A stretch of DNA of 41,138 bases. Origin: Acidobacteriota bacterium (lineage in GTDB: Bacteria; Acidobacteriota; Thermoanaerobaculia; Gp7-AA8). Below the pieces are notes generated by a model that did no database searches, was not told the DNA's origin, and was given only the letters and a program-made list of their open reading frames with translations. This document shows, piece by piece, positions 24,064 through 38,483 of the stretch. Location of the stretch: positions 1-41,138 of the forward strand of contig JAFAVZ010000007.1 in assembly GCA_019242175.1 (NCBI GenBank), in the 5' to 3' direction. The position numbers and the translations under genes are program-made. Numbering within the stretch: position 1 is the stretch's first letter; each line of letters begins with the position of its first letter.

Positions 24064-26703
24064 ATGTCTCTCACCGCAGGGACGATGCTGGGACCGTATC
24101 AGCTCGTAGCCGAAATCGGCTCGGGCGGCATGGGCCATGTTTTCCGCGCGACCGACACCCGGCTCGAGCGCGCCGTGGCCATCAAGATCGTGGCGCCTTC
24201 CGGCTGGAGCGATCCTGCGCTCCGGCAACGGTTCCATCGCGAGGCGCGGGCAATCAGCTCGCTGAGCCATCCGAACATCTGCGCGCTCTTCGATGTGGGT
24301 GAGGTGGTCGTCGACGAAGTATCCGTGCCTTATCTGGTGATGGAGTTCCTCGAGGGCGAGACGCTCCGGGAGCAGATCGAGAAAGGGAAACTGTCGGCTC
24401 GGAAGGCGCTCGGTTACGGCGCGCAGATCGCGGCCGGGCTCGCGGCCGCGCATGAGAAGGGGCTGATTCACCGCGACCTGAAGCCCGAGAACGTGTTCGT
24501 CACGAAGGACGAGCAGGTGAAGATCCTCGACTTCGGGCTGGCGAAGAGCAACGCATCCATCGCGGAGACCGGCCCGAACATGAAGACCCGGGTCGGCGAC
24601 GTCGTCGGCACGCCGCATTACATGTCGCCCGAGCAGATCCGCGGGCAGACGCTCGATCACCGGTCGGACATCTTCTCGTTCGGCATCGTCCTCTACGAAA
24701 TGTTGACCAGCCGGCTGCCTTTCGCGGCGCGGTCGGCGGTGGAGACGATGCACGCGATCTTGCGCGAGGAGCCGGCGCCGCTGAGCCTCGTGCGGCCCGA
24801 GCTGCCGGATTCTGTCGAGCTGCTCGTGCAGCGCTGCCTGGAAAAGGAGCCGGCGAACCGGTTCGCGTCGACGAAGGACTTGTCGTTCGCGCTGGACGCC
24901 ACCGCGCGCACGTTGGGATCGTCGCCGACGCGCACCCGCAAGCGCTCCAAGCCGCGCGTCGAGTTCCCGCGCAGCGGACGATTGTGGGTCATCGGTCTCG
25001 TCCTGATCGCGTTTCTGATTGCGGCTGGCTTCAGCCTCTTCGACCGGCCGATTCCCGAGCCGGCGAAGTTGCGCACGCTCACGTATTCGGGCCGCGATGG
25101 CTCGCCCGCGGTCTCCGCGGATCGGAAGCTGCTCGCGTTCGTCTCATCGCGCGACGGGCGGAGCCGGATCTGGCTCGAACAGCTCGCCGATGGAACCGAG
25201 GTGCCGGTGACGGCGGGGCCGAACGACAGCGCGCCGCGTTTCTCGCCCGATGCGTCGCAGCTCCTGTTCACGCGTGCGACCAACAGCGCCTTCGCGCTCT
25301 ACCGTATCGCAACCCTCGGCGGCGAGCCGCGGAAGATCATCGACAATGCGTTCGACGGCGATTGGTCGCCGGATGGGAAACGCATCGCGTTCGTGCGCAA
25401 CCGCGCGGAGAAACAGCAGCGGCTGTCGACGCTTTGCGTGGCGAACATCGACGGCAGCGATCTGCACGAGATCGTCGCCGCGCCGGAGGACGATCTCACC
25501 GCGCCCCGTTGGTCGCCGGACGGCGCGTCGATCGCCGTCATCCGCAATCCGCATTTCACGAACAGCGGCTCCGTGCTCGTCGTCGACGTCGCGTCGGGTG
25601 ACAAGCAGGTGCTCGCGCGCTCCGAGCCGCACGGCTTGTTGTCGGGCGTCGCGTGGATTCGCAATGGCGACGCGGTCGTGTACGCGGAGCTCGACGCATT
25701 GACGAGCGGCATGTTGCGGCGCCGTTCCGGCGGCGCCGCGATCGTGCTGCACGAGCTGAGCGGCAATGCGACCGTGCTGATGCGCAACGCGCACACCGCC
25801 GCCGACACGCTGGCCATCGCCGGGCCGGGGAAGCTCGTGTTCTCGGAAGACGTCACGCGCCAGAACCTGCGGGAAGTCGCGATCGACGGCGGCGAAGGGG
25901 CCGACGCGCGCTGGCTCTCGCGCGGGACGAGCATGGATCGCCAGCCGTTCTACTCCGCCGACGGCCAACGCGTCGTTTTCACGTCCGACCGCAGCGGCAA
26001 CGTCGATATCTGGGAGCTGACGCTGGCCACCGGCGGACTGCGCCGGCTCACCGATCACGATGCGATCGACTGGGATCCGTATCTCGCCGCGGACGGCACG
26101 CTGTTCTTCAGCAGCGACCGGGGCGGGCACTTCGAGGTGTGGCACGCGACGGCCGATGGGCTCGCGCCGAAGCAGGTGACGCGCGACGGCGTCGATGCCG
26201 AGAATCCGTCGCTGCCGGCGTCCGGCGAGTGGGTCGCGTACGACTCGAGCAATCCGAAGACGGACGGGCTCTGGCGCGTGCCGCGCGACGGCGGCGAGGC
26301 GCACATTCTCTTCGCCGGCGAGACGATCCATCCCGCGATCTCCGCGGATGGGGAGCTCGCCGTCTACCAGCGTCCGGAGGAAAGCGGTGGCAACGCGGTG
26401 GACGTCGTGAGCGTGCGCAACGGCCGCGTGCAGACGCTCGCGAACGGTATGACCGGGATGCTCCGCGCGCGCTGGCTCGGCGCGACGCACACCGTCGTGT
26501 TCCGCGACGGCAACACGTTCGTCGCCCAGGACTTCGCGTTCGACACCGATACGCGCTCGACCCGCCGCGTGCTGTTGCGCTTCGATAGCGACGCCGTACC
26601 CGACACGTTCGCCATCTCCCCCGACGGCAAACGCGCCGTGCTCTCCATCGTCAACGAAGCCTCTGCCGTCATGGTGACCGACGGGCTCAAAGGCGTGGAG
26701 TGA
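24064..26703 (+). CDS. Ser/Thr protein kinase with a TM segment and a C-terminal TolB-like (PD40/WD40-like) beta-propeller
   Basis: Kinase motifs are GSGGMGHVFRA, VAIK, HRDLKPEN, DFG and YMSPEQ. The TM segment is LWVIGLVLIAFLIAAGFSLF. Repeated PD40-type motifs are present (P.SPDG..AF, FSSDRGG.FE.W, FTSDRSGNVDIW). I preferred the ATG at 24064 over the TTG at 24034. Confidence 0.85.
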   Translation: MSLTAGTMLGPYQLVAEIGSGGMGHVFRATDTRLERAVAIKIVAPSGWSDPALRQRFHREARAISSLSHPNICALFDVGEVVVDEVSVPYLVMEFLEGETLREQIEKGKLSARKALGYGAQIAAGLAAAHEKGLIHRDLKPENVFVTKDEQVKILDFGLAKSNASIAETGPNMKTRVGDVVGTPHYMSPEQIRGQTLDHRSDIFSFGIVLYEMLTSRLPFAARSAVETMHAILREEPAPLSLVRPELPDSVELLVQRCLEKEPANRFASTKDLSFALDATARTLGSSPTRTRKRSKPRVEFPRSGRLWVIGLVLIAFLIAAGFSLFDRPIPEPAKLRTLTYSGRDGSPAVSADRKLLAFVSSRDGRSRIWLEQLADGTEVPVTAGPNDSAPRFSPDASQLLFTRATNSAFALYRIATLGGEPRKIIDNAFDGDWSPDGKRIAFVRNRAEKQQRLSTLCVANIDGSDLHEIVAAPEDDLTAPRWSPDGASIAVIRNPHFTNSGSVLVVDVASGDKQVLARSEPHGLLSGVAWIRNGDAVVYAELDALTSGMLRRRSGGAAIVLHELSGNATVLMRNAHTAADTLAIAGPGKLVFSEDVTRQNLREVAIDGGEGADARWLSRGTSMDRQPFYSADGQRVVFTSDRSGNVDIWELTLATGGLRRLTDHDAIDWDPYLAADGTLFFSSDRGGHFEVWHATADGLAPKQVTRDGVDAENPSLPASGEWVAYDSSNPKTDGLWRVPRDGGEAHILFAGETIHPAISADGELAVYQRPEESGGNAVDVVSVRNGRVQTLANGMTGMLRARWLGATHTVVFRDGNTFVAQDFAFDTDTRSTRRVLLRFDSDAVPDTFAISPDGKRAVLSIVNEASAVMVTDGLKGVE

Positions 26704-28075
26704 AGCGCTCCCGCCAGTCGCGCCGCGCGTCGACCGCCGGCGGCTTGATGTCGCCGAGGCGTTGTTCGCCGGTCATGGCCGCGAAGTAGTCGGCTTCGCG
26801 CACGCGCAGGACGTCGAGCGCACCGAGTTGGCCGAGGCGGCGGCAGTAGTCGTAGTGGAAGCTTTCGCGCAACGCGTCCTCGAGACGCGCAACGTCGACC
26901 GGTGCGTCGGCGTCGATGAAGAGAGTGTAGTGATCGCCGTCCAATGCGAGCATCGCGAAACGATGGGGCGGCAACGTGCGGGTGAAGCAGTCACGGACGA
27001 AGACTTCGTTCAGCTTCTCGCCGAAGTGATCGACGACGCGTTTTCTGCCGAGGAAACGGAGCAGCGGGCACGAGCCGGCGTAGCCGACGATTTCCACGAG
27101 GTCGCCGGTCTGGTAGCGATACAACCCGCCGCCGGTGGTGAGCACGATTTCGCGAACGTAGGGGCGGGCTTCAGCCCGTCCGGACCGGCTGAAGCCGGTC
27201 CCTACCTCCATCAACTCCACGAAATGCGATCGATACGCGAGCGCCGGTGCCGCGGCGCCGATGGGAATCGAGACGACGCCTTCCGTCGAGAGCAGACCTT
27301 TCGGCTCGATGCGCACGTGCGGGAAACGCTTCGCCAGTTCCGCGGCCGCGGGCGCAGCGCCGGCGTCGGTCCAGCAGCTGATCGTGCGCAGGTTCGGCCA
27401 CTCCGGTTGTTCGTCGCCGAGGAGCAGCAGGAGAAAGCTCGGATGCCAGACGGAGATCAGCGACAGCGAATGGCTGCGCAGCAGATGCGCGAGCGTGGTG
27501 CGCCGAAACGCGTCGATGTCCGCGATCAAGCGAACGGACGAGGGAACGGCCTGCACCGCGCGGACGAGCGCGCCGCGGAACTTGCCGACGTATTCGTCAT
27601 CGCCGTCGAAGCCGATGCGGATCCCGTTCGCCGTCTCCCGCGGTCCGACGCCGACCGGCGACAGCGACCAATACGCCGGCCCACTGAACGCGCGCGGCTC
27701 GGCGCGGAACGTCGAGACAATCCACGTGGCGATCGCGCGCGCCACCTCGGTGCGCAGCGAGCGCGTGTACGGAATCAACTTCGTCGCGCCGGTCGAGCCG
27801 CTCGTCGGCTCGAAGTGCTCGATCGGCTCCGCCGTCAGCGCGTTCGCCTCGATGTACGGCGCGAAGTCTTCGTACGTGCGCAACGGCACGCGGGCGACGT
27901 AATCCTCGACGCTGCGGATCGACGCGAAATCGTGCTCGCGTCCGAACGGCGTGTCGCGATTGCGGCGCACGATGCGCAGCAGAATCTCGCGTTGCACTTC
28001 CTCCACGCGATGCAGCCCGGCGCGGAACGCGAGCGCCTCGGGATACGACGATGCGATCCACGCCGCGTTCGCCAT
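26687..28075 (-). CDS. GH3-family adenylating enzyme (acyl-acid amido synthetase-like)
   Basis: It carries the adenylation motif EPTSGSTGATKLIPYT, plus VPLRTYEDFAPYI and TTGGGLYRYQTGDLVEIVGY. I chose the start at MANAAW. Its 3' end overlaps the convergent kinase gene by 17 nt. Confidence 0.75.
   Translation of the reverse strand: MANAAWIASSYPEALAFRAGLHRVEEVQREILLRIVRRNRDTPFGREHDFASIRSVEDYVARVPLRTYEDFAPYIEANALTAEPIEHFEPTSGSTGATKLIPYTRSLRTEVARAIATWIVSTFRAEPRAFSGPAYWSLSPVGVGPRETANGIRIGFDGDDEYVGKFRGALVRAVQAVPSSVRLIADIDAFRRTTLAHLLRSHSLSLISVWHPSFLLLLLGDEQPEWPNLRTISCWTDAGAAPAAAELAKRFPHVRIEPKGLLSTEGVVSIPIGAAAPALAYRSHFVELMEVGTGFSRSGRAEARPYVREIVLTTGGGLYRYQTGDLVEIVGYAGSCPLLRFLGRKRVVDHFGEKLNEVFVRDCFTRTLPPHRFAMLALDGDHYTLFIDADAPVDVARLEDALRESFHYDYCRRLGQLGALDVLRVREADYFAAMTGEQRLGDIKPPAVDARRDWRERFTPRL
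27158..27205. repeat. Repeat family B variant (GTAGGGGCGGGCTTCAGCC...GGCTGAAGCCGGTCCCTAC) inside the GH3 CDS
   Basis: The inverted arms are visible in the sequence. The corresponding minus-strand translation is VGTGFSRSGRAEARPY. The length is 48 nt. Confidence 0.75.
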
Positions 28076-28110
28076 CGCGGCGCAAATCGCCACGCCAGTG
28101 GCGCGAGGGT

Positions 28111-28848
28111 TCACCGCAGCATCCGCGCGCCGGCGGGCGTCAGGTTGTCCTCCGCCACGCGCACGATGCACGCGAGCTCGTCGCCCCGCGCGTGGCCGGG
28201 ATTCGCCTCGAGAAAGAACCGCACGTGCGGATCGTGCGCGGCGCGTTCGCCGGCATCCGCGAAAGCCGCGCGCAGAGGCGACGGCGTGGCGAGCCGCACG
28301 ATCCCGGTCGCGCGATCGTACGCATCACCGAAACGCCGCACGGCAACACCATCGAGCAAAGACGCCAGCTCGGAAGATCGATGGTCGAAGCGCGGATGGA
28401 ACTCGCGGAAGAACACCGGCAGGAAGCGATACGTGCGATAGCCGCTGCTGATGAGAAACCAATAGACCTCGCCGTCGGTCCGCTGCGCCGCGGCGCGCAC
28501 GTGATTCACCCAAAGCCGCGACAGCTCCGGCGTGCCCCGCCGTTCTTCCGCGACGATCGTGTCGCCAGAGAAAAAGATGTCGCGCCCGTCGTGCTCGAAG
28601 CGCATGAGCGTGGAGAAGCCGTCGATCGCACCGCGCGCGTCGCGCAACACGATCACCCACTCCTTCTCTTCGAGATCGCGTTCGAAGACGGCGCGCGCGG
28701 TGCCGGAAAAGTACGCGGCGAAGAGCGCGAACATCTCGTCGCGGTCGCGCGCGGAGAGATCCCGCCGCAGCACCACCGCGCCCGCTTCGGCGATCGGCTC
28801 AGAGCGTGGCGAGCTCGAGGCGCGCAGGTCGAGAATCGAGTCGGTCAT
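28111..28848 (-). CDS. GNAT-fold-like acyltransferase, possibly N-acyl amino acid synthase / LuxI-like (tentative)
   Basis: About 245 aa. FERDLEEKEWVIVLRDARGAIDGFSTL and IVAEERRGTPELSRLW resemble GNAT / autoinducer-synthase-fold proteins. The start is uncertain (28848 or 28875). It overlaps the upstream gene by at least 50 nt. Confidence 0.45.
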   Translation of the reverse strand: MTDSILDLRASSSPRSEPIAEAGAVVLRRDLSARDRDEMFALFAAYFSGTARAVFERDLEEKEWVIVLRDARGAIDGFSTLMRFEHDGRDIFFSGDTIVAEERRGTPELSRLWVNHVRAAAQRTDGEVYWFLISSGYRTYRFLPVFFREFHPRFDHRSSELASLLDGVAVRRFGDAYDRATGIVRLATPSPLRAAFADAGERAAHDPHVRFFLEANPGHARGDELACIVRVAEDNLTPAGARMLR

Positions 28849-29848
28849 GGAAGTCGTCTCCGTCGTCCCAGGCAACGGTGTAGATGTCGCTGCGATATTC
28901 GATCGGCCGAAACGCGCGTGCCGCGGCGAGCAACGGATCGCGCGACGAAAAACCGAGAAGCAGATGATCGAGCCGCCGTTCGGCGGCGAGCTGCAGCAGC
29001 TGCGCGATGAGCTCGCGCGCGATCGATGGATCGTCGTCTTTCGCGCAGAAGAACGAGCCGTACGCCGTACGCAACGCGCTTCCCGGCCGGGGCAAGCGCG
29101 GACCTCGCGTCACGAGGTTGTAGAACGGGCGGGCGGTGGCGAGCAGGCGATCGTAGGCGTCGATCACGGTCTGCTTGTACGCACTCTGATCCCACAAACC
29201 GGCGACGCCGACGATCTCGCCATCGCGCTGCACGCTGACGAAATCCACCCCGGGCGGATCGTCGAAAAGCGGGAAGAGCTGCCGCCGCGGACCGTGCGCA
29301 GCAAGAAAACGTAGGACCGGCTCTCCAGCCGGTCCAGCATCAAATATTGGGCCGGCTGGAGAGCCGGCCCTACGTTTCACTCCGATCGCGAGCGTGAACA
29401 GCGAATCGAGTAACCGATACCGAGGCATCGACGGGCGCCGTTTTCCCACCAGCACGCCTTCAGCCTGCGCGTTGCCGGAGACGATCGTCGTCACGTAGCC
29501 GCGCGCGCGACCGTCTGCGTGCAGTTCGCGCAGCATCGCGAAGCCGCGCGCGACGAGCGAGCGGCCCTGGTAAGAGGGATCGACGCGGAGTTGCCCGAGG
29601 TAGCCGACGTCTTCCCGGATGCCATTGATGTACATCGGGCGGACGGCGCGACAAGCGAGGCCGACGACCCGGCCGCTGTCCCGCGCGACGAGTACCTGCG
29701 TGAAGGGTCCCATCGCCGCACAGCCCGCGAAGTAGTCGGGCTCGCGTTCGAGGCGGATGCGGATGCGGCCGGGCATCGCGCTGTTCGCGAGCAGCGCGCG
29801 CAACGCCGCATCGTCGCCGGGCGTCGCGACGGAGAACGCCACGCTCAC
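28799..29848 (-). CDS. GNAT-family N-acyltransferase with a C-terminal extension domain
   Basis: The acyl-CoA motif is LRVDPSYQGRSLVARGF (Q/R-x-x-G-x-G/A). The GTG start forms a GTGA overlap with the upstream radical SAM stop codon. The long track ORF (to 30625) is an artefact upstream of this start. Confidence 0.65.
   Translation of the reverse strand: MSVAFSVATPGDDAALRALLANSAMPGRIRIRLEREPDYFAGCAAMGPFTQVLVARDSGRVVGLACRAVRPMYINGIREDVGYLGQLRVDPSYQGRSLVARGFAMLRELHADGRARGYVTTIVSGNAQAEGVLVGKRRPSMPRYRLLDSLFTLAIGVKRRAGSPAGPIFDAGPAGEPVLRFLAAHGPRRQLFPLFDDPPGVDFVSVQRDGEIVGVAGLWDQSAYKQTVIDAYDRLLATARPFYNLVTRGPRLPRPGSALRTAYGSFFCAKDDDPSIARELIAQLLQLAAERRLDHLLLGFSSRDPLLAAARAFRPIEYRSDIYTVAWDDGDDFHDRLDSRPARLELATL
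29311..29373. repeat. Repeat family B full copy inside the GNAT CDS
   Basis: gtaggaccggctctccagccggtcc-agcatcaaatatt-gggccggctggagagccggccctac. It is read in-frame on the minus strand as RRAGSPAGPIFDAGPAGEPVL. The length is 63 nt. Confidence 0.8.
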
Positions 29849-31203
29849 GCGTTCCCTCCCACGCGCAACAGCGGCCCGCGGAACGCCTCGTCGCCGAGCG
29901 GGTAATCGCGACGTTGCGTGACCTCGCGGCGGATCAGCCAGTTGATCGTGAAGAAGTTCGACCACATGTACGCCGACGAGCCGTTGATCCGGTCGAAGCT
30001 GCGGCGCCAGATCGAGCGCAGGCTGTAGAACTCCTTCCGCGCGCTGATGCAGCCTTCCTTCACCTCGTTCGCCGTCATCCCCTGTGGCGTGAACGGCACC
30101 ATGCCGTAGCGATAGTCGGGATCGAGCCACCACTTGTCGAACAGCAAACGCCCTTCGCGTTGCAGCCGATCGTAGAGCGGCGTGCCGGGGAACGGCGTGA
30201 GGTGATTGAACGCGACGATGTAGAAGTTGTGGCGCTCCGCGAACGAGACGACGTCGTGCACCGCCGCCGGCGAGTCGCCGTCGTAGCCGACGATGAACGT
30301 CACGTACAGACGGATCCCGAAACGCCGCAGGTTGCGCAACGCGGCCTCGTAGCCGCCGCCCATCGTGTTGAACGACTTGTGCATCTGCCGGAGGTTCTCC
30401 GGATTCAGCGACTCGAAGCCGATGAGCAGCCCCTGGCAGCCGCTGTCTTTGAGCAGCTGCAGCAGCTTGTCGTCGTATGCGACGTTGATGCTGGCCTGGC
30501 TCACCCAGCGGATCTTCAGCGGCGCCAGCTTGCGGTACAGCTCCTTCGCCTGCTCCAGGTTCGACGTGATGTTGTCGTCGACGAAGAAGTAGAGCGGCTT
30601 CTGCATGCGCCGGATCTCGTCGCACACGTCGTCTGCCGGGCGGCGCGTCTGCGTGCTGTTGAAGTACGCCTGGATCGCGCAGAAGTCGCAGCGGAAATGG
30701 CAGCCGCGACCCGCCTCGATGAGGCCGAGCGGCAGATAGCGTTTGCCGTGGAAGATCGAGCGATCGGGAAACATGCCCGCGAGTTGCGGACGCTTTGCCG
30801 TGCGGTAGATCGGCTTCAGCGTGCCGTGGCGCGCGTCGTCGATCACCTCCGGCCAGATGCCTTCCGCCTCGCCGATCACGACCGACTCCGCGTACTGCGA
30901 AACCTCGTCCGGCATCAGCGTCGCGTGGAAGCCGCCCATCACGACCGGCACGCCGCGCCGCCGGTATTCGGATGCGATCTCGTAAGCGCGACGCGCCGTG
31001 TACGTCTCGACGCTGATCGCCACGAGATCGGTCGGCTCGTCGTACGGAATCGTCTCCATCCGATCGTCATAGAAACGCACGTCGACGTCTTTCGGCGTGA
31101 GGCCCGCGAGCGCGGCGGGAGCGAGCGGCTCCATCTGCCACGTGCGGATGTACTTCTCGCCGATGCGATGGCCGATGGAGGGATGGACGAGGGTCAGGCG
31201 CAT
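29845..31203 (-). CDS. B12-binding-domain radical SAM enzyme (class B, DUF4070-like C-terminus)
   Basis: The N-terminal cobalamin-binding-type Rossmann region is DLVAISVETYTARRAYEIASEYRRRGVPVVMGGFHATLMPDE. The radical SAM motif is GRGCHFRCDFC (CxxxCxxC). 452 aa. Confidence 0.8.
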   Translation of the reverse strand: MRLTLVHPSIGHRIGEKYIRTWQMEPLAPAALAGLTPKDVDVRFYDDRMETIPYDEPTDLVAISVETYTARRAYEIASEYRRRGVPVVMGGFHATLMPDEVSQYAESVVIGEAEGIWPEVIDDARHGTLKPIYRTAKRPQLAGMFPDRSIFHGKRYLPLGLIEAGRGCHFRCDFCAIQAYFNSTQTRRPADDVCDEIRRMQKPLYFFVDDNITSNLEQAKELYRKLAPLKIRWVSQASINVAYDDKLLQLLKDSGCQGLLIGFESLNPENLRQMHKSFNTMGGGYEAALRNLRRFGIRLYVTFIVGYDGDSPAAVHDVVSFAERHNFYIVAFNHLTPFPGTPLYDRLQREGRLLFDKWWLDPDYRYGMVPFTPQGMTANEVKEGCISARKEFYSLRSIWRRSFDRINGSSAYMWSNFFTINWLIRREVTQRRDYPLGDEAFRGPLLRVGGNA

Positions 31204-31207
31204 GGGA

Positions 31208-32539
31208 TCAGGCCGCGCGACGGCCGGCGGGCAGCGACCAGTCGCACGTGTAGTAGCGATTCAGATGATGCGCGTAAAAGCGGTAGCCGAGATTGGCGGG
31301 GATCGCGATGCCGAGCTGGACGCGGGCGCCGGCGAGCCGCTTTGCGATGCCACCGTACGAGTACGTCATCTTCCACGCGCGCTCCGTGCCGCGTTGCAGC
31401 TCGTCGGCGGTCATGCGCGCCGGTTGATACACGACATGCTGGCCGTCGTAATAGCTCCAATCCGTCGTCAGCAAACGCCCCTCGCGTCCGAGGCGGTTGT
31501 GGAGCGGAGTGCCGGGGAAGGGGGTGAGGATCGCGTAGCGCGGCAGATCGATGTGCGAGTCGATCGCGAACTGCGCGGTGCGCTCGAAAACGTCGGTCGT
31601 GTCGTCGTCGAAGCCGAAGACGAAGCAGCCCTGGATCGCGATCTTCCGCGCGTGCAGCCGTTCGATCACCGTCTTGTAGTCGACCCGATCGTTGAATTGC
31701 TTGCGCGTCTCGGAGAGGGCGCCGTCGCTCAGCGACTCGAAACCGAGGAGAAGGCCGGAGCAGCCGCTTTCGGCGGCGAGATCGAGGAGCTCGTCGTCCC
31801 ACGCGATCATCGTCGTGGAGAGACCGCCCCAACGGACGCCGAGCGGCGCGAGCGCGCGGAACAGCTCCTTCGCGTAGTCGGTATCGGAGATGAGATTGAG
31901 ATCGAGGAAGATCAGCTTGCGGGGACGCATCTGGCGGATGTCCGCAATCACGTCGCCGATCGGTTTCTGCAGCGGCCTTCCCCACGCCGACGGCACGACG
32001 CAGAACTCGCATTTGTGGATGCAGCCGCGCGTCGCCTCGATCGTGTGCAGCGTCACGTACTCCTTCGCCGGCAGCAGATCGCGTCGCGGAAACGGCAGAT
32101 TCTCCAGCTTCAGATGCGGCGACTGGTCGTAGCGTTTCTGCAGCCGGCCGGCCGCGAAGTCACGCAGCAACTGCGGCCAAGTCTCCTCGGCATACCCGAC
32201 GACCGTTGCGTCCGCGTGCTGCATCACTTCCTCGGGCATCAGGGTCGCGTGGACGCCACCGATGACGACCGGCACGCCGCGCGCGCGGAACTGCGCGGCG
32301 AGCTCGTAGGAACGCGGCGCGGTGCCGGTGATGGCGCTGATGCCGACGAGGTCGACGTCGCAGTTCGGATCGACGTCGCCGATGCCCTCATCCATCAAAA
32401 CGACCTCGGCATTCAGGTCGGGCGGGACGAGCGACGCGAGCGTGGTGAGCGTCAGCGGCGCATAGCGCAGCGACTTTTTCCAGATGCCGCTGCGGTGCCG
32501 GTAGAGCGGTCCGCGAGGGGAGATGAGGGCGATCTTCAT
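31208..32539 (-). CDS. B12-binding-domain radical SAM enzyme (class B), paralogue of the downstream gene
   Basis: Motifs are DLVGISAITGTAPRSYELAAQFRARGVPVVIGGVHATLMPEE and TRGCIHKCEFC. I chose the ATG at 32539 (MKIALISPRG, parallel to MRLTLVHPSIG of the paralogue). The track starts it 6 nt earlier at a TTG. Confidence 0.8.
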   Translation of the reverse strand: MKIALISPRGPLYRHRSGIWKKSLRYAPLTLTTLASLVPPDLNAEVVLMDEGIGDVDPNCDVDLVGISAITGTAPRSYELAAQFRARGVPVVIGGVHATLMPEEVMQHADATVVGYAEETWPQLLRDFAAGRLQKRYDQSPHLKLENLPFPRRDLLPAKEYVTLHTIEATRGCIHKCEFCVVPSAWGRPLQKPIGDVIADIRQMRPRKLIFLDLNLISDTDYAKELFRALAPLGVRWGGLSTTMIAWDDELLDLAAESGCSGLLLGFESLSDGALSETRKQFNDRVDYKTVIERLHARKIAIQGCFVFGFDDDTTDVFERTAQFAIDSHIDLPRYAILTPFPGTPLHNRLGREGRLLTTDWSYYDGQHVVYQPARMTADELQRGTERAWKMTYSYGGIAKRLAGARVQLGIAIPANLGYRFYAHHLNRYYTCDWSLPAGRRAA

Positions 32540-32596
32540 GTACAATACCGACCGGTATGGAAGCTACGCCCGCCGCCCGGGAATGTCAATGCGTGG

Positions 32597-32869: not shown

Positions 32870-33421
32870 ATGGCCACGCAACGCACACGCCTCGGCGTCC
32901 CCACCCGCAACGCGGTGGATTGGGAGGAGGCTGCGCTCGACGCGATCGCGGCCGGCGGTCTCCGCTCCGTGACGATCCCCTCGCTCGCCCAGACGCTCGG
33001 CGTGACCAAGGGCAGCTTCTACTGGCACTTCGCCTCGCTCGATGAATTGATCGCAGCCGCGCTCACGCGCTGGGAGCTCGCTGACAAGGCGACGCTCGCG
33101 ACACTCGCCGCGATCGAGGATCCCGCGACGCGATTGCGCGCGGCATTCGAAGAGGCGATGCAGCTGACCCGCGCCCAGGCGCTGTTCATCGCGCTCAATG
33201 CGACGCCCGACGATGCGGTCGTCGCGACTTTGCGCCGCGTGTCGCAACGCCGCATCCGCTTCCTCACCGCCGCGTTTCGGGAGCTGGGGCTCGAGGCGAA
33301 AGAAGCGCGCGAGCGAGCATTGCTCGCCTACACCGCCTACCTCGGCGCCTTTCATCTGCGCCGCCAGGCGCTCGACATCCCGACGTACGTTGCGCACGCC
33401 GCGAGGACGCTCATCCCGTGA
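32870..33421 (+). CDS. TetR/AcrR-family transcriptional regulator
   Basis: The N-terminal HTH is AALDAIAAGGLRSVTIPSLAQTLGVTKGSFYWHFASLDELI. 183 aa. Confidence 0.85.
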   Translation: MATQRTRLGVPTRNAVDWEEAALDAIAAGGLRSVTIPSLAQTLGVTKGSFYWHFASLDELIAAALTRWELADKATLATLAAIEDPATRLRAAFEEAMQLTRAQALFIALNATPDDAVVATLRRVSQRRIRFLTAAFRELGLEAKEARERALLAYTAYLGAFHLRRQALDIPTYVAHAARTLIP

Positions 33422-34359
33422 GGCCGCCCGAGGTGGTGCCGGCCTGGTACATGGCGGCGCCGTCACGCGCATTGAAGCCGGGGCGCACATTGCGCTTCCA
33501 GCTCGGCGATCTGCCGCTCGTGTTGTTCCGCGGACGGAACGATCACGTCGTGCATGCGTTGCCGGCGCATTGCCGGCATCAGGGTGTCGATCTCGCGCAT
33601 GGCGCGGTCGTCGGCGATTGCCTGCGTTGCCCGCTGCATCACTGGGAGTATCGCGACGCGTGCGTGCGTATCGCGAATGCTGCGCGTGTGCCGGCGGCGT
33701 TTCAGCGCGCTCACTACAAAGTGATGGAACGCTACGGGATGATCTTCGTGCATCCCGGCGTCGAGCCGACCGAGTTGCCGACGTTCACGCCGCCGGACGA
33801 AGAGCTCGCGTTTCTCAGCGGCGCGCAGGTCGACCTCGATTGTCCGTGGTACGTGCCGCTCGCGAACGCGTTCGACATGACCCATCTGCGCACGGTGCAT
33901 CATCGCGAGCTGCTCACGGCGCCGGAGATGACGTTTCCCCGCCCGATGACGTTCGTCGTGCGCTACGCGACGTCCGTCATCGGCAGCAGCTGGCACGACC
34001 GCGCGATGCGTGCGCTTTCGAGCAATCACATCGAGGTGATGATCACCTGCACGGCCTCGATGCTCCTCGTCGAGTCGTCGGCCGGGCGCACGCGGAGTTA
34101 CCTCATGGTCAGCCTCCGGCCGCGGCCCAACGGCGGCGTTTCGATCCTGCCGCTGTACGCCGTGCCGAAGCGCAGAAGCGGGCTGCATCACGCGCACGTG
34201 CGCGCGGCGCGAGCGCTGTTCAACGCGTTCCTGCGGCGCGACGTCAGCCCGCTCTCCGGCATCCGCTTCCCCGAGCCTTACGTCGATCCGCACGACGCGA
34301 CGATCGACGCCGCCTACCGCCATCTGTGCCGGCTTCCGGCCTATCAAAGCGAGGAATGA
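33418..34359 (+). CDS. Rieske [2Fe-2S] non-heme iron oxygenase
   Basis: The Rieske motif is C-R-H (AHCRHQG) then C-P-L-H (LRCPLHHW). The mononuclear iron motif is D-x2-H-x4-H (FDMTHLRTVHH). The GTG start forms a GTGA overlap with the tetR stop. Confidence 0.8.
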   Translation: MRPPEVVPAWYMAAPSRALKPGRTLRFQLGDLPLVLFRGRNDHVVHALPAHCRHQGVDLAHGAVVGDCLRCPLHHWEYRDACVRIANAARVPAAFQRAHYKVMERYGMIFVHPGVEPTELPTFTPPDEELAFLSGAQVDLDCPWYVPLANAFDMTHLRTVHHRELLTAPEMTFPRPMTFVVRYATSVIGSSWHDRAMRALSSNHIEVMITCTASMLLVESSAGRTRSYLMVSLRPRPNGGVSILPLYAVPKRRSGLHHAHVRAARALFNAFLRRDVSPLSGIRFPEPYVDPHDATIDAAYRHLCRLPAYQSEE

Positions 34360-34955
34360 TGATGAGAAGACTGCTGCCGATGCTCCTGCTGATGTCCACG
34401 CTTCCGGCGATTGCCCAGGCGCCGCCCGCGCCGAATCCCGACGAACCGGTGCACCAGGCGTTGCGCCAGCTGAAGGCGACGATGGCGAAGGCGCTGAACG
34501 AACGCGACCTGAACACGATCGTCGCGAACGTCACGCCGAACGTCGTGTTCACGACGATGAACGGCGACGTGTGCCACGGCCCGGCGGAGATCCGCGCGTA
34601 CTTCGACAAGATGCTCAACGCGCCGGGACACATCGTCAAGAACCTGACGGTGTCCTTCGAGGCCGACGCGCTCACCGACCTGCACGGCGGCGACACCGGC
34701 ATCGCGTACGGCAGCTCGAACGATCACTACGAGCTGACGAACGGCCAGGTCTTCGACATCCACGGCCGCTGGAGCTGCACGCTCGTGAAGGAAGGCGACC
34801 GCTGGCTCATCGCGAACTTCCACTACTCCGCGAACGTGTTCGACAACCCTATCCTGAACAAGACGAAGCAGTGGGCGACGTGGGCCGCCGTCGGTGCGGC
34901 GATCGTGGCGTTGCTGGTCGGCTTCTTCGTCGGACGGCGCACGCGGCGGGCATGA
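34356..34955 (+). CDS. Secreted or membrane-anchored NTF2/SnoaL-like (DUF4440-type) protein
   Basis: It has a signal peptide (MMMRRLLPMLLLMSTLPAIAQA) and an NTF2-like core (ALNERDLNTIVANVTPNVVFTTMNGDV...GRWSCTLVKEGDRWLIANFHYS). The C-terminal TM anchor is WAAVGAAIVALLVGFFVG. ATGA overlap with the Rieske stop. Confidence 0.6.
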   Translation: MMMRRLLPMLLLMSTLPAIAQAPPAPNPDEPVHQALRQLKATMAKALNERDLNTIVANVTPNVVFTTMNGDVCHGPAEIRAYFDKMLNAPGHIVKNLTVSFEADALTDLHGGDTGIAYGSSNDHYELTNGQVFDIHGRWSCTLVKEGDRWLIANFHYSANVFDNPILNKTKQWATWAAVGAAIVALLVGFFVGRRTRRA

Positions 34956-35830
34956 AGATTCCGGGCGGCCTGAACGTCGCGCTGACCGCGCTCGCCGCGG
35001 CAGCGTGTTGCGCGCTCTTGCGCATCGCGTCGCACGGCGCTTCTCATGGCGCGTGGTGGCTGCTCGCGCTGGCCGCCATTGCATTCTCGTTCACGAACAA
35101 CACGATGTTCTCGCTGCTGCACGAATCCGTGCACGGCATTGCCCATCGCAACCGTCGCATGAACGAGATCGTCGGTACGTTCGCCGCCGCGTTCTTCCCC
35201 ACGTCGCTGTCACTCCAGCGTCTCTTCCACCTCGGCCACCACGCCCACAACCGATCCGATCACGAGCAGTTCGACTACCTCCGTCCCGGCGATCGCCCGT
35301 GGCTGAAACGCGCGCAGTGGTATTCGATCCTGACCGGGCTCTATTGGCTGTTCGTGCCCGTCGGCGCCGTGATGTTCGCGCTCTGGCCGAGCTTCTTCGC
35401 GAAGCCGTTTGTCGCCGCGCGCCAGACCGGGGGCGCGTCCGTGTTCGCGTTCCTCGACAACGCGCCGCGCACGCGCATCCGGCTCGAAGCGCTGTTCGCG
35501 ATCGCCGTGCAGGCGTCGTTCTTCTTCGCGCTCGGCGTGACGTGGCGCGGTTGGCTCGCGTGCTACGTGGCGTTCGCCGTGAACTGGAGCTCGCTGCAGT
35601 ACGCCGATCACGCGTTCTCGCCGCTCGACGTCCGCGAAGGCGCGTGGAACCTGCGCGTGAATCCCATCACGCGGCTGCTGTTCCTCAACTATCACCATCA
35701 CCTCGCCCACCATCAGCACCCGCAAGTCCCGTGGCTCCACCTCGGACGTTTCGTCGACGGACGCGCGGAACGGCCGCGGTTCTGGCGCGTCTATCTCTCG
35801 ATGTGGCGCGGCCCGCGCCCGATGCCATGA
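34952..35830 (+). CDS. Membrane fatty-acid-desaturase-family di-iron enzyme (desaturase, hydroxylase or ketolase type)
   Basis: Three His boxes are present: HESVHG, HLGHHAH and HHHLAHHQH. It has multiple TM helices. ATGA overlap with the upstream stop. Confidence 0.8.
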   Translation: MKIPGGLNVALTALAAAACCALLRIASHGASHGAWWLLALAAIAFSFTNNTMFSLLHESVHGIAHRNRRMNEIVGTFAAAFFPTSLSLQRLFHLGHHAHNRSDHEQFDYLRPGDRPWLKRAQWYSILTGLYWLFVPVGAVMFALWPSFFAKPFVAARQTGGASVFAFLDNAPRTRIRLEALFAIAVQASFFFALGVTWRGWLACYVAFAVNWSSLQYADHAFSPLDVREGAWNLRVNPITRLLFLNYHHHLAHHQHPQVPWLHLGRFVDGRAERPRFWRVYLSMWRGPRPMP

Positions 35831-37200
35831 AACGCTTCCTGCTCTTCGGTGTGCTGTTCGGCGTGTGCTACAGCGGCGCGTCGTGGCTCGCGATGCAGCG
35901 CGCGTCGCTGCCGTCGTGGGCTTTTCCGTTCGAACAGCACGTGCCGTTCGTCCCGTGGATGGCGTATGTCTATCTGACGATCATCCCGGCGTTGCTCGTC
36001 GCGCCTCTGCTGCTGCGCGACGAGCTGCGCGCATTCGCGACGACGCTCTGCTGGGAGACGGTGATCGCCTGCGCGTTCTTCGTCGTGTATCCGCTCACGA
36101 CGAGCTTCCACCGCCCGCCCGTGTCGATGCTCGCGTTCCGCGTTGCTGATGCGTTGAACCTCGAGGCCAACGAGTTTCCGTCGCTCCACGTGGCGTTCGC
36201 CGTGACGTGCGCATGGGTGTACGGCCGCCGCCGCAGAGGTGTCATCCTGAGCCCCGCAGAGGGCGAAGGATCTCCTCGCAAGAGCCAGGAGATCCTTCGC
36301 TTCGCTCAGGATGACAAGAGGACTGTTTTCTGGATCACGTGGTGCGTTCTCGTGAGCGCCTCCGCCTGGCTCACGTGGGAGCATCAGCTCATCGATCTTC
36401 TCGGCGGCGCCGTTCTCGCCTGGGCGTGCATCCAACGCGAGATCGTGTGGGCCGAGCTCTGTTGCCTCGTGCAATGCGCGCGATTCTCGCGACGTCACGT
36501 GCGCTACTTCGTGATCTTCCTCGCGATCTGGGGGCCGTCGTTGCTGCATTGGCGACGAACGCGCGTCATCCGCTTCGCGTTCGTCACCGCGCAGTGGATC
36601 GACGATCTGCTCGACGGCGACCGCCCGTCGAAACGCGACCCGTTGCTGATCGTCGACGAGCTGCTCGCCCGCCGCTTCACCCGCGAGCCGTTGCCGCGTT
36701 TGATGGCCGCGCTCTTCCGCGAACTGAAACCACAGGACGAGTTCCTCGACCTGATCCGCGAAATGCGCCTTGACCGCCTCCGCCTCGGCGAGCGTTGGAC
36801 CGCGGCGCCGCTCGAGGAGCATCACCGCCGCACGTTCGCGCTTTCCGTCGACCTGATGCTGCAGCTCACCGGCTGCCGTACGCGGGCGACCGAGGTGATG
36901 CCGCTCGTCGATGCGCTCGCGTGGTGCTCCGTGTTCCGCGACCTCGACGACGATCTCGCGAAGGGCTTGATCAACATCCCGCTCGAGGTGACCGACGCCG
37001 AAGCATGGAGTCGGGACGAACATGCGCGAGCGTTGCGGACGCTGCGCGAGAGCGAGAACGCGATTGCCGCACTCAGCGATCGCAAGGCCCAACGCATCCT
37101 CGGCGTGTTCCAACGCTCCATCGAAAAGTTCGCAGCGGGCCGCCTGGAGAATCGCGAGGCTGTGTCGACGGCTCAGGACGGCAGACCGGCCGTTCCCTAG
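35827..37200 (+). CDS. Fusion protein: N-terminal PAP2_C/sphingomyelin-synthase-like membrane domain plus C-terminal squalene/phytoene-synthase-like (class 1 isoprenoid synthase) domain
   Basis: The N-domain has FPSLHVAFAV and WEHQLIDLLGGAVLA (the S-x-H and H-x-x-x-D type motifs of PAP2_C). The C-domain has two Asp-rich motifs, AQWIDDLLDGD and VFRDLDDDLAKGLINIP, resembling SQS_PSY. ATGA overlap with the desaturase stop. Confidence 0.6.
   Translation: MKRFLLFGVLFGVCYSGASWLAMQRASLPSWAFPFEQHVPFVPWMAYVYLTIIPALLVAPLLLRDELRAFATTLCWETVIACAFFVVYPLTTSFHRPPVSMLAFRVADALNLEANEFPSLHVAFAVTCAWVYGRRRRGVILSPAEGEGSPRKSQEILRFAQDDKRTVFWITWCVLVSASAWLTWEHQLIDLLGGAVLAWACIQREIVWAELCCLVQCARFSRRHVRYFVIFLAIWGPSLLHWRRTRVIRFAFVTAQWIDDLLDGDRPSKRDPLLIVDELLARRFTREPLPRLMAALFRELKPQDEFLDLIREMRLDRLRLGERWTAAPLEEHHRRTFALSVDLMLQLTGCRTRATEVMPLVDALAWCSVFRDLDDDLAKGLINIPLEVTDAEAWSRDEHARALRTLRESENAIAALSDRKAQRILGVFQRSIEKFAAGRLENREAVSTAQDGRPAVP
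36241..36315. repeat. Repeat family A full compact copy inside the PAP2-like domain CDS
   Basis: gtcatcctgagccccgcagagggcgaaggatctcc-tcgcaagagcca-ggagatccttcgcttcgctcaggatgac. It translates in-frame as VILSPAEGEGSPRKSQEILRFAQDD. The length is 75 nt. Confidence 0.85.
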
Positions 37201-37215: not shown

Positions 37216-37248
37216 CTATGGCCATTAGCGCGGCGGGCCGTGCCCGCC
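37216..37248 (-). repeat. Repeat family C copy; GC hairpin (GGCGGGC-ACG-GCCCGCC on the minus strand) abutting the tRNA 3' end
   Basis: Plus-strand sequence is ctatggccattagcgcggcgggccgtgcccgcc. The 7-bp stem includes the tRNA discriminator position. Confidence 0.65.
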
Positions 37249-37334
37249 GGAGGAGGTGGGATTCGAACCCACGGTACGGTTGCCCGTACGGCGGTTTTCA
37301 AGACCGCTGCCTTAAACCACTCGACCACTCCTCC
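37248..37334 (-). tRNA. tRNA-Ser (anticodon UGA), CCA not encoded
   Basis: Folded by hand. Acceptor is GGAGGAG/CTCCTCC. Anticodon stem is GCGGT/ACCGC with loop CTTGAAA. It has a long variable arm (GTACGGGCAACCGTAC), a T arm GTGGG-TTCGAAT-CCCAC, and discriminator G. Confidence 0.9.
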
Positions 37335-37364
37335 AGGCTTGGCGCGGTGAAGGCGAACAGCGTG

Positions 37365-38483
37365 TCACGGCAAAAGATTCACGTCCAGCGTGATCTTCAG
37401 CTTGAGGCGGCGGTGACGTTTCAGCTCGTCGATGGAGAGGTTCAGCGGGATGCTGACCTCCTTCGTGAGGCCGTCGCCGGAACGGCGCTCGGCGGGGGGA
37501 GCGGGCGGCGCGGCGACTGCCGACGGGGCGGAGTCGAGGGAGGGGAGCGAGTCGAGGATGCCGGGTGGGAGCGGGATTTCGATCGAGGCGAGCGGCACCT
37601 CGATCGGCGGAGCCACGGGGGCGAGGCCGGGCGTGCTGAAGTAGTCCGAGACCTCGTCGTCGGAGTCGCTGTTGAACGGGTTGACGAGCTCCGTGGCGAC
37701 GAGCGGGATCGAGTCGTCGTCCGAGGCGTCGTCGACGACGAAGCCGGGCGAGGAAGAGGTGACTGGCGGCGGGACGGGAGGTGGGGGCGCGACCGGCGGA
37801 AGGTCGTCGTCCCAAAGCGAGTCGACCGGCGGCGCGTCCGACGCGCGCGCGTTCAGGATCTGGATCTCGCGCTCGATCGGCTCCGTTCCTTCCAGCCCGT
37901 ACTTGCGGATGAGATGCGCGAGCACGAGCTGCGTGATGCCCTTCAGCGTCTCCTCGACGCCGATCCCGGTCGTGGCCACGGACTCGAACGTCGGCACCTT
38001 CTGCTTGTTCAGCTCCGCGTCCATCGACGCGGTGTTCATCGCGTTCGGCAGATCGCGTTTGTTGTACTGGATCACCAGCGGGATCTCGCGGAGGCGGATG
38101 CCCTGGCGTTTCAGGTTGTCCTCGAGGTTCTGCAGCGACTCCAGGTTCGCGTCGAGCGCGAAGTCCTGCGAGTCGGCGACGAACACGATGCCGTCCGCGC
38201 CTTTCAGCACGAGCTGGCGCGTCGAGTTGTAGTAGACCTGGCCCGGCACGGTGTAGAGCTGCAGCTTCGTGCGCATGCCTCGGATCTTGCCGAGGTCGAG
38301 AGGGAGGAAGTCGAAGAAGAGGGTGCGGTCCGTCTTCGTCGCCAGCGAGAGCATCTTGCTCTTGTTGTTCGACGGCAGCGAGTCGTAGACGAACTGCAGA
38401 TTGGTCGTCTTCCCGCAAAGACCGGGACCGTAGTAGACGATCTTCGCGGTGATCTCTTTCGTTGCGTAATTGAAGAGGACCAT
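37365..38483 (-). CDS. MglA-family Ras-like small GTPase with a roughly 180-aa Pro/Asp/Ser-rich C-terminal extension
   Basis: The first roughly 195 aa align by eye with Myxococcus MglA: KIVYYGPGLCGKTTNLQ (P-loop), DRTLFFDFLP, LYTVPGQVYY (switch II) and IQYNKRDLPNA (NKxD). The low-complexity extension ends in KEVSIPLNLSIDELKRHRRLKLKITLDVNLLP. Confidence 0.8.
   Translation of the reverse strand: MVLFNYATKEITAKIVYYGPGLCGKTTNLQFVYDSLPSNNKSKMLSLATKTDRTLFFDFLPLDLGKIRGMRTKLQLYTVPGQVYYNSTRQLVLKGADGIVFVADSQDFALDANLESLQNLEDNLKRQGIRLREIPLVIQYNKRDLPNAMNTASMDAELNKQKVPTFESVATTGIGVEETLKGITQLVLAHLIRKYGLEGTEPIEREIQILNARASDAPPVDSLWDDDLPPVAPPPPVPPPVTSSSPGFVVDDASDDDSIPLVATELVNPFNSDSDDEVSDYFSTPGLAPVAPPIEVPLASIEIPLPPGILDSLPSLDSAPSAVAAPPAPPAERRSGDGLTKEVSIPLNLSIDELKRHRRLKLKITLDVNLLP

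Follow-up and report, generated by a model that had tools for sequence, protein, structure and literature searches.

What would a bacterium do with a single protein that joins a PAP2 membrane domain to a domain built like squalene and phytoene synthases? The question is raised by one gene in a 41,138-nucleotide stretch of DNA from an Acidobacteriota bacterium (contig JAFAVZ010000007.1 of assembly GCA_019242175.1), the whole of which is called the window below. The gene encodes a 457-amino-acid (aa) fusion of a PAP2_3 domain and a squalene/phytoene synthase (SQS/PSY)-fold domain, and it closes a five-gene operon. Our preferred answer, held tentatively and a little short of an even chance, is that the fusion is a two-domain inner-membrane enzyme carrying out two separate steps of one lipid- or isoprenoid-modifying pathway, which is scattered horizontally among bacteria. 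An earlier note on this DNA was aware of no characterised protein with such an architecture, and full-text literature searches agree, having found no paper on either the fusion or its gene set. Where databases name the homologues, they use “phosphatase PAP2 family protein,” “membrane-associated phospholipid phosphatase,” or “hypothetical protein,” and these existing PAP2-type names hide the C-terminal domain. Known superfamilies supply its parts, but the subfamily and the architecture are uncharacterised.

Is the fusion real? It is a single open reading frame (ORF) with an uninterrupted translation, whose ATG overlaps the stop codon of the upstream desaturase gene by 4 bp (ATGA). The closest homologues share its MKRF(L/V)LFG N-terminus, and its GC content at third codon positions (0.84) is like that of the neighbouring genes. 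The four strings quoted in the earlier note are all present in the translation: FPSLHVAFAV (aa 117–126), WEHQLIDLLGG (184–194), WIDDLLDGD (257–265), and FRDLDDDLAKGLINIP (370–385). From an alignment of 105 sequences, AlphaFold gave a confident two-domain model, with a predicted local distance difference test score (pLDDT) of 90.1 and a predicted template modelling score (pTM) of 0.83; pLDDT drops below 50 in two segments only, aa 139–149 and the last six residues, 452–457. The domains are not separated by a linker, since helix 188–202 runs directly into helix 204–223. Out of 5.8 billion proteins searched, 160 matched, more than 100 of them full-length (420–500 aa), with fused homologues originating in independent JGI, ENA, NCBI, and Logan assemblies. 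Those bearing a taxon name come mostly from Thermoanaerobaculia, and the PF14378 (PAP2_3) match is precomputed for many of them. It might be argued that neighbouring genes were joined here by an assembly error or a frameshift, given that the two parts are separate genes in one Bacteroidetes locus (L028). With a continuous frame, high inter-domain confidence, the same fused protein in more than 100 independent assemblies, and 53 of 148 family representatives fused in this way, that explanation deserves practically no credence, and the fusion is genuine, as the earlier note had supposed.

The protein is assigned to no NCBIfam family, a single-sequence search of the PDB returned nothing at E ≤ 10, and Foldseek with the whole model gave no match at E ≤ 1e-3, SMSr and Aur1 standing at ranks 5, 10, and 11. 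The fold matches given below come from re-scoring with a structural aligner (C-terminal domain, residues 203–457) and from a separately built model of the N-terminal domain. The features are located in Table 1.

Table 1. Positions of the fusion gene, its domains and motifs, its neighbours in the window, and genes of three other loci (L017, L020, L028).
Feature	Position	Strand	Basis
Whole gene, PAP2_3 :: SQS/PSY-fold fusion, 457 aa	35827..37200	+	Open frame, AlphaFold model, homologues
Six-helix PAP2_3 (sphingomyelin synthase/inositol phosphorylceramide synthase-like) membrane domain, aa 1–203	35827..36435	+	Pfam, fold matches, hydropathy
PAP2 C2 motif P-S-L-H (His121)	36178..36189	+	PSLHV invariant in homologues
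75-nt palindromic repeat, in frame, 25 codons, in the cytoplasmic (predicted) loop between transmembrane helices 4 and 5	36241..36315	+	Inverted arms, genome matches
PAP2 C3 motif E-H-x3-D (His186, Asp190)	36379..36396	+	H186 and D190 invariant
SQS/PSY-fold (class I isoprenoid-synthase fold) domain, aa 204–457	36436..37197	+	Fold matches, profile against PDB
First Asp-rich motif D-D-L-L-D-G-D (aa 259–265)	36601..36621	+	Conservation, HpnC alignment
Second Asp-rich motif R-D-L-D-D-D (aa 371–376)	36937..36954	+	Conservation, HpnC alignment
TetR-family regulator, first operon gene	32870..33421	+	Pfam TetR_N 40.9 bits; 4-bp overlap with Rieske gene
Rieske [2Fe-2S] oxygenase	33418..34359	+	Pfam Rieske 54.9 bits
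NTF2-like (DUF4440/SnoaL) gene, signal-like N-terminal segment, C-terminal hydrophobic anchor	34356..34955	+	Pfam, sequence
Membrane di-iron FA_desaturase-family gene	34952..35830	+	Pfam FA_desaturase 94.3 bits
Divergent cassette: two B12-binding radical SAM genes, intervening genes, GH3	26687..32563	-	Pfam
B12-binding radical SAM genes	31208-32563 and 29845-31260	-	Pfam
GH3-family gene	26687-28324	-	Pfam
PAP2 gene (separate)	L028:3322-3978		
Desaturase gene	L028:3959-4918		
Cytochrome P450 gene	L028:4911-6155		
SQS-like gene (separate)	L028:6152-6964		
~915-aa RnfD-like/FG-GAP/ASPIC protein	L017:4468-7203; L020:5288-8038		

The N-terminal domain passes the Pfam cut-off for PAP2_3 (PF14378, 29.3 bits against 27), stays below that for PAP2 (PF01569, 19.2 bits), and has no match to PAP2_C (PF14360) even at E ≤ 1. 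The earlier description of this half as PAP2_C or sphingomyelin synthase-like therefore survives at the level of fold, where it resembles sphingomyelin synthases and inositol phosphorylceramide synthases (SMS/IPC synthases), but not in its Pfam family, which is PAP2_3. When the domain was modelled alone (pLDDT 89.2) and searched against 48,161 representative chains, the best matches were human SMSr (8ijr_A, Z 15.0; a second SMSr chain, 14.4) and yeast Aur1 (9ivc_A, Z 13.1), with alignments spanning all six helices (residues 1–203). The alignments of LpxE (Z 12.8), G6PC1 (12.3), and PgpB (11.7) begin only near residue 30. Every chain that reaches Z ≥ 8, 14 in number, belongs to the PAP2 superfamily; beyond them come other haloperoxidases of the same superfamily (Z 5.7–7.3), and unrelated folds start at 5.6. 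The catalytic residues are strictly kept: PSLHV does not vary among 105 close homologues or among 21 distant ones, and S179, H186, and D190 (S-x6-H-x3-D) are invariant across 21 homologues that include distant PAP2-only relatives. FPSLH and the His186 of E-H-x3-D are also invariant in alignments of 24 and 105 members, and Asp190 is so in alignments A1 and A5. The alignments contain no Lys seven residues ahead of Arg96, as the C1 motif K-x6-R-P would have, and Ser179 of C3 is followed by Thr or Ala, not Arg. The pair Arg96-Pro97 is itself confined to the Thermoanaerobaculia clade, R96 being lost in distant fused members. The domain thus keeps the His-His-Asp triad without the Lys/Arg phosphate clamp of lipid-phosphate phosphatases, an active-site pattern that, as read from the alignments, is that of SMS/IPC synthases and not the full K/R/H/R/H/D set of the phosphatases. 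Assignment as a vanadium haloperoxidase was rejected, the Lys/Arg ligands of vanadate or phosphate being absent and these entries scoring only Z 5.7–8.1.

The loop between transmembrane helices 4 and 5 carries a peculiarity of its own. The 75-nt repeat listed in Table 1 has outer arms GTCATCCTGAGC/GCTCAGGATGAC and an inner 17-nt hairpin; the genome of the window contains about 99 matches to it, many arranged as tandem arrays. It is not present in an 84%-identical homologue (P0002), and it coincides with the sole low-confidence internal segment of the model, aa 139–149. At exactly the same loop, the homologous gene at L014:7845-8495 in a related genome holds a longer relative of the repeat (VILSPGEGDGS...AQDDTR), and that at L001:6203-6874 a different repeat-derived in-frame insert (HPALRATLSPQAGRGD...). 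Palindromic elements seem to be tolerated when they land in this loop.

The C-terminal domain finds its best fold match in HpnC (4hd1: Z 17.7, root-mean-square deviation 3.4 Å, 225 residues aligned, 21% identity), next to LvqB4/CqsB4 (Z 16.1–16.8), CrtM (15–16), and human squalene synthase (about 14). HpnC was also the sole credible PDB match (E 6e-3) of a sequence profile (A4) built from 15 sequences, triple-fusion and standalone members from five phyla included, in which DDLLDGD falls on the DDLGD of HpnC and RDLDDD on its QDIDRD. SQS_PSY itself is matched by 5 of 15 aligned relatives (best E 1.7e-7), and the homologue from Roseateles reaches 22.2 bits. Both Asp-rich motifs are of the kind that binds Mg2+ and diphosphate. 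In the first Asp-rich motif D260 and D263 are invariant and D259 and D265 at least 90% conserved; in the second, R371, D372, and D376 are invariant. These five invariant residues hold at 31–45% overall identity, and R223, R226, and R319, together with R371, do so across phyla over the same range. Alignments of 24 and 105 members show invariant QW-DD-LD-DR (aa 256–266) and WCS-x2-RD-x3-D-x3-G-x2-N-x-P (aa 366–385). All 120 C-terminal domain sequences checked carry the second motif, and 106 of them the strict DD..D.D form of the first. The Asn that stands ahead of the second motif in HpnC aligns with an invariant Ser. The profile match to HpnC and the SQS_PSY matches of 5 of the 15 members therefore place the domain as a divergent branch of the SQS_PSY superfamily, one that on this alignment evidence has kept its metal and diphosphate ligands while residues of the catalytic segment were altered. 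The earlier note's call of an SQS/PSY-like domain with two Asp-rich motifs is thus upheld by fold and by motif invariance, but not by the Pfam hidden Markov model, whose score for this protein stays sub-threshold.

On which side of the membrane would each domain work? Hydropathy gives six hydrophobic helices in the N-terminal domain, and the loops predicted to lie inside carry 10 Lys plus Arg residues, against 3 in those predicted outside. The N-terminus of the fusion would accordingly be cytoplasmic, the C2/C3 His-His-Asp site would lie at the periplasmic leaflet, and the synthase-like domain, starting at residue 204, would again be cytoplasmic. In PAP2 enzymes of known topology the C2/C3 motifs are found at the periplasmic leaflet. 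Desaturases of the FA_desaturase family end in the cytoplasm, so that proteins in which one precedes the PAP2 domain also fit the predicted topology. With a periplasmic PAP2 site and a cytoplasmic synthase-like domain, both predicted, direct hand-over of a substrate is unlikely. The suggestion that prenyl-diphosphate chemistry is coupled to head-group transfer, if pictured in one pocket, hence loses most of its appeal.

How widespread is this arrangement? Among species-representative genomes, the fused gene occurs in 16 Thermoanaerobaculia/Acidobacteriota loci. At 34–39% identity it is found in metagenome-assembled genomes of Gammaproteobacteria, Planctomycetota, Holophagae, another proteobacterium, and Thermoanaerobaculaceae, as well as in the isolate Roseateles sp. 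NT4. Several homologues of 742–783 aa add an N-terminal FA_desaturase domain; such desaturase-PAP2-SQS triple fusions, each in a single ORF, stand at loci L017, L018, and L020 in other phyla, and the cultured Roseateles sp. NT4 carries one. Of 301 genomes sampled from the same phylum, the C-terminal domain was found in only 3, so the gene set is accessory and patchily distributed. An exhaustive search of 1.84 billion representatives with a hidden Markov model of this domain returned 500 proteins at E ≤ 1e-3, 178 of them at E ≤ 1e-30. Of its 150 best matches, 148 were newly returned representatives, and the architectures of these were counted: 53 are PAP2-SQS, 3 desaturase-PAP2-SQS, 7 desaturase-SQS, 83 standalone or fragmentary, and 2 of other kinds. 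At least 63 of the 148 therefore have the domain joined to a membrane domain, and the architecture, described as unusual in the earlier note, is not rare within its own family. A quick maximum-likelihood tree built from 120 domain sequences shows the architectures intermingled, and well-supported branches force at least nine changes between standalone and PAP2-fused forms. A structure search of the Atlas also led to a 340-member cluster, mainly from Myxococcota and about 533 aa long, most of whose members have both PAP2 and SQS_PSY.

A standalone form was verified in Bacteroidetes, where PAP2, desaturase, P450, and SQS-like genes follow one another at L028 (Table 1). Orthologues with two separate genes, which the earlier note had named as a possible refutation, do exist then, but the conclusion that the fusion would be an artefact is not borne out, as it recurs in many assemblies. 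Just downstream of the SQS-like gene of L028, on the other strand, lies a “putative cyclase” gene (PF04199, 7011-7970). In the Thermoanaerobaculia locus L013 (10169-11008 and 16879-17805), the fusion gene is followed by a truncated radical-SAM remnant. About 6 kb further on, a second SQS-like ORF, standalone and 308 aa long, is placed directly ahead of an intact pair of radical-SAM genes. It looks as if the cluster had been partly duplicated or rearranged around an 1100-aa ORF that was inserted there.

The neighbours of the fusion form with it a translationally coupled operon with 4-bp overlaps, in the order TetR, Rieske, NTF2-like, desaturase, and fusion. Gene context was established by tblastn of the window's proteins against related loci and by ORF calls. 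In loci L001–L022, the fusion is found together with Rieske, NTF2-like, and desaturase genes in varying order, with the NTF2-like gene adjoining the desaturase gene, and the operon core recurs in Acidobacteriota, Planctomycetota, Proteobacteria, Myxococcota, Bdellovibrionales, and Bacteroidetes. The divergent radical-SAM/GH3 cassette adjoins the operon in about half of these 22 loci, in various orders and orientations, and it also lies next to a PAP2-only gene in Bdellovibrionales and Myxococcota (adjacency in L003, L012–L014, L018, L019, L021, L022, L026, and L027). L026 and L027 have the PAP2 gene and no SQS-like match within the locus; a 293-aa ORF before the PAP2 gene of L026 was considered as an SQS-like homologue and rejected, having no motifs and 22% identity. 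The proteobacterial loci L017 and L020 are without radical-SAM genes and have instead a protein combining an RnfD/NqrB-like membrane part with FG-GAP and ASPIC/UnbV domains (Table 1).

All five fusion genomes without an adjacent GH3 gene hold a GH3 orthologue elsewhere (47–59% identity), while four of five genomes of the window's own family without the fusion have no GH3 match and the fifth has only a 31%-identical homologue, in a sample that is small and made of related, non-independent genomes. Two orthologues in fusion genomes, at G303:C331:7814-9409 and G302:C3:4321564-4323084, contain three and two in-frame TGA codons in the six-frame match and could be pseudogenes, frameshifted matches, or the product of sequencing errors. 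Against the NCBIfam model OlsH, the GH3 protein of the window scores 66.8 bits, far below the cut-off of 620. Its desaturase has weak, partial matches only, to the CrtR, GntB, and CrtW families, and its Rieske protein a weak, partial match to SdmA, with SxtT/SxtDIOX and KshA as best PDB sequence matches; these named-family matches identify no substrate.

A carotenoid or hopanoid operon is not supported: no CrtI/HpnE-type or cyclase gene was seen among the cluster ORFs scanned, and squalene-hopene cyclase has no match in the genome from which the window comes (86% complete). That genome carries one canonical SQS_PSY gene, located elsewhere beside murJ. Downstream of the fusion, on the opposite strand, a tRNA-Ser(UGA) gene (37246-37335) lies 46 bp past the stop codon, and a small-GTPase-like gene (Arf/Ras Pfam matches) with a long Pro/Asp/Ser-rich tail extends from 37365 to 38483, also on the reverse strand. 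A 56%-identical copy of the latter lies at L002:12276-13190, likewise downstream of the fusion, so that synteny extends past the operon.

What reaction scheme would fit all this? At the cytoplasmic face, the synthase-like domain would bind and ionise an allylic (prenyl) diphosphate and would then attach or rearrange the isoprenoid unit on a pathway intermediate, on which the adjacent desaturase-family di-iron enzyme and the Rieske oxygenase would also work. The lipid would have to reach the outer leaflet before the PAP2_3 step, in which the domain would take a phospho-head group off a membrane phospholipid and place it on a hydroxyl of that lipid by way of a phospho-histidine, or else would hydrolyse one. 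Joining the domains would serve co-localisation and stoichiometry, not substrate channelling. Two separate steps are favoured because the PAP2 site is without the terminal-phosphate clamp, because the two sites are predicted on opposite membrane faces, and because there are clusters with either domain alone. Several observations weigh against this scheme. The C-terminal domain scores 18.5 bits (E 1.7e-3) with Pfam SQS_PSY (PF00494), below the cut-off of 26. The Tyr of the YCxxxA segment of HpnC (YCRYSADPVG) aligns with a near-invariant His332. In SQS_PSY enzymes the Tyr of the YCxxxAG segment is the catalytic base of the first half-reaction; with His in its place, the canonical head-to-head reaction becomes doubtful, and the domain may use a substrate other than a prenyl diphosphate. 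No prenyl-diphosphate synthase was found among the cluster ORFs scanned, and no gene of the set has a known substrate, product, or characterised orthologue. The lead of SMSr and Aur1 over LpxE and PgpB is just 1–3 Z units, and the topology is a prediction from hydropathy and charge counts (the positive-inside rule). Finally, metagenomic gene calls cut short at the N-terminus may account for some of the “standalone” representatives, and if so the number of fusion and fission events is inflated.

The main rival would make the two domains consecutive: a lipid diphosphate, either a presqualene-diphosphate-like or a prenyl diphosphate species, would be produced or held by the SQS-like domain, and PAP2 would remove one or more phosphates from it to leave an alcohol or a monophosphate, in the manner of terpene-synthase/phosphatase pairs or of the handling of undecaprenyl diphosphate, which is made inside the cell and dephosphorylated outside. 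A recurrent PAP2-SQS fusion fits such consecutive steps. PgpB and LpxE, both clear fold matches of the N-terminal domain (Z 11.7–12.8), dephosphorylate polyprenyl diphosphates, and PgpB entry 8bm3 is bound to a farnesyl pyrophosphate ligand. HpnC, a hydroxysqualene synthase and the best match of the other domain, acts on presqualene diphosphate. Arg96-Pro97 even resembles the end of a C1 motif, although only in the Thermoanaerobaculia clade and not in distant fused members, and the clamp formed by C1 Lys and C3 Arg is absent. When the predicted location of the active sites on opposite faces is added, along with the SQS-like domain often being fused to a desaturase without PAP2 and the PAP2 genes of L026 and L027 lying in clusters without a detectable SQS-like gene, this explanation appears unlikely. 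Could the SQS-like domain instead be non-enzymatic, a cytoplasmic lipid-binding, regulatory, or scaffold module that docks the PAP2 protein or the desaturase, leaving PAP2 alone catalytic? Its sub-threshold score, the change of Tyr to His in the catalytic segment, and that of Asn to Ser near the second motif would agree, and non-catalytic members of the SQS_PSY family exist, such as the complex I assembly factor NDUFAF6. Yet the Asp-rich motifs and the four arginines stay invariant across phyla, with the second motif complete and the strict first motif nearly so in the 120 sequences, a pattern expected of metal-diphosphate binding and not of a scaffold, which makes a non-enzymatic role quite improbable.

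The whole gene set (Rieske, NTF2-like, desaturase, PAP2_3 and SQS fold, usually the GH3/acyltransferase cassette, and sometimes B12-radical-SAM genes) may mark a new lipid pathway. It is conceivable, albeit rather doubtful, that the set makes an undescribed class of membrane lipids, oxygenated and containing isoprenoid or amino-acid parts, with a phospho-head group added at the outer leaflet. The fusion would then supply both the isoprenoid and the head-group steps, as a bacterial counterpart of SMS/IPC synthases acting on a non-sphingoid acceptor. Both superfamilies are well studied; this uncharacterised subfamily, its fusions, and its gene set are conserved from Acidobacteriota to Bacteroidetes and Proteobacteria, and the combination of an SMS/IPC-synthase-like transferase, an isoprenoid-synthase fold, and membrane oxygenases hints at unexplored lipid chemistry in soil and freshwater bacteria.

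How does the fusion compare with systems already known? Of its PAP2 relatives, SMSr (8ijr/8ijq) and Aur1 (9ivc, 9vj4) are closest, sharing the six-helix core, the His-His-Asp triad without the C1 Lys/Arg clamp, and the same predicted topology, with termini inside and active site outside. They differ in sequence (12–16% identity to the N-terminal domain, PAP2_C being unmatched) and in setting, since the fusion has a bacterial host and no sphingolipid genes were seen in its cluster, and SMS/IPC synthases are without its cytoplasmic synthase-fold domain. PgpB, LpxE, and LPP1 have the same superfamily fold (Z 10.7–12.8) and the C2 His and C3 His and Asp in common with the fusion family, which is however without their C1 K-x6-RP Lys and C3 Arg; helix 1 of the N-terminal domain is also left unmatched, as these alignments begin at residues 28–32. 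The PAP2 family is mentioned merely in passing in the lipocone paper. The linked cassette shares a GH3-family enzyme with the OlsH/OlsI ornithine-lipid pathway, in which OlsH is the only characterised bacterial GH3 protein with a lipid role (PMC12493201). The GH3 protein of the cassette falls far short of the OlsH model, as noted above, and no partner of the PAP2, Rieske, desaturase, or squalene/phytoene-synthase type is mentioned in the OlsH paper (PMC12493201).

On the synthase side, the C-terminal 254 aa have the all-helical class I fold of the HpnC/SQS_PSY family (CrtM, CrtB, HpnD, squalene synthase), and both Asp-rich motifs align with those of HpnC. The differences lie in the first motif, extended here to DDxxDxD, in the weak family score with His for Tyr and Ser for Asn, in the frequent fusion to membrane domains, and in the cluster genes scanned, among which no FAD-type desaturase, cyclase, or HpnD-like partner was seen. 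The aromatic prenyltransferases LvqB4 (7vws) and CqsB4 (7vwt) of carbazole pathways differ in being soluble enzymes of actinomycete secondary metabolism, with 14% identity to the domain and no membrane partner. Their fold match is nevertheless as strong as that of CrtM, and they use a squalene-synthase fold to transfer a prenyl group to a non-prenyl acceptor, which is the kind of reaction proposed here for the fusion.

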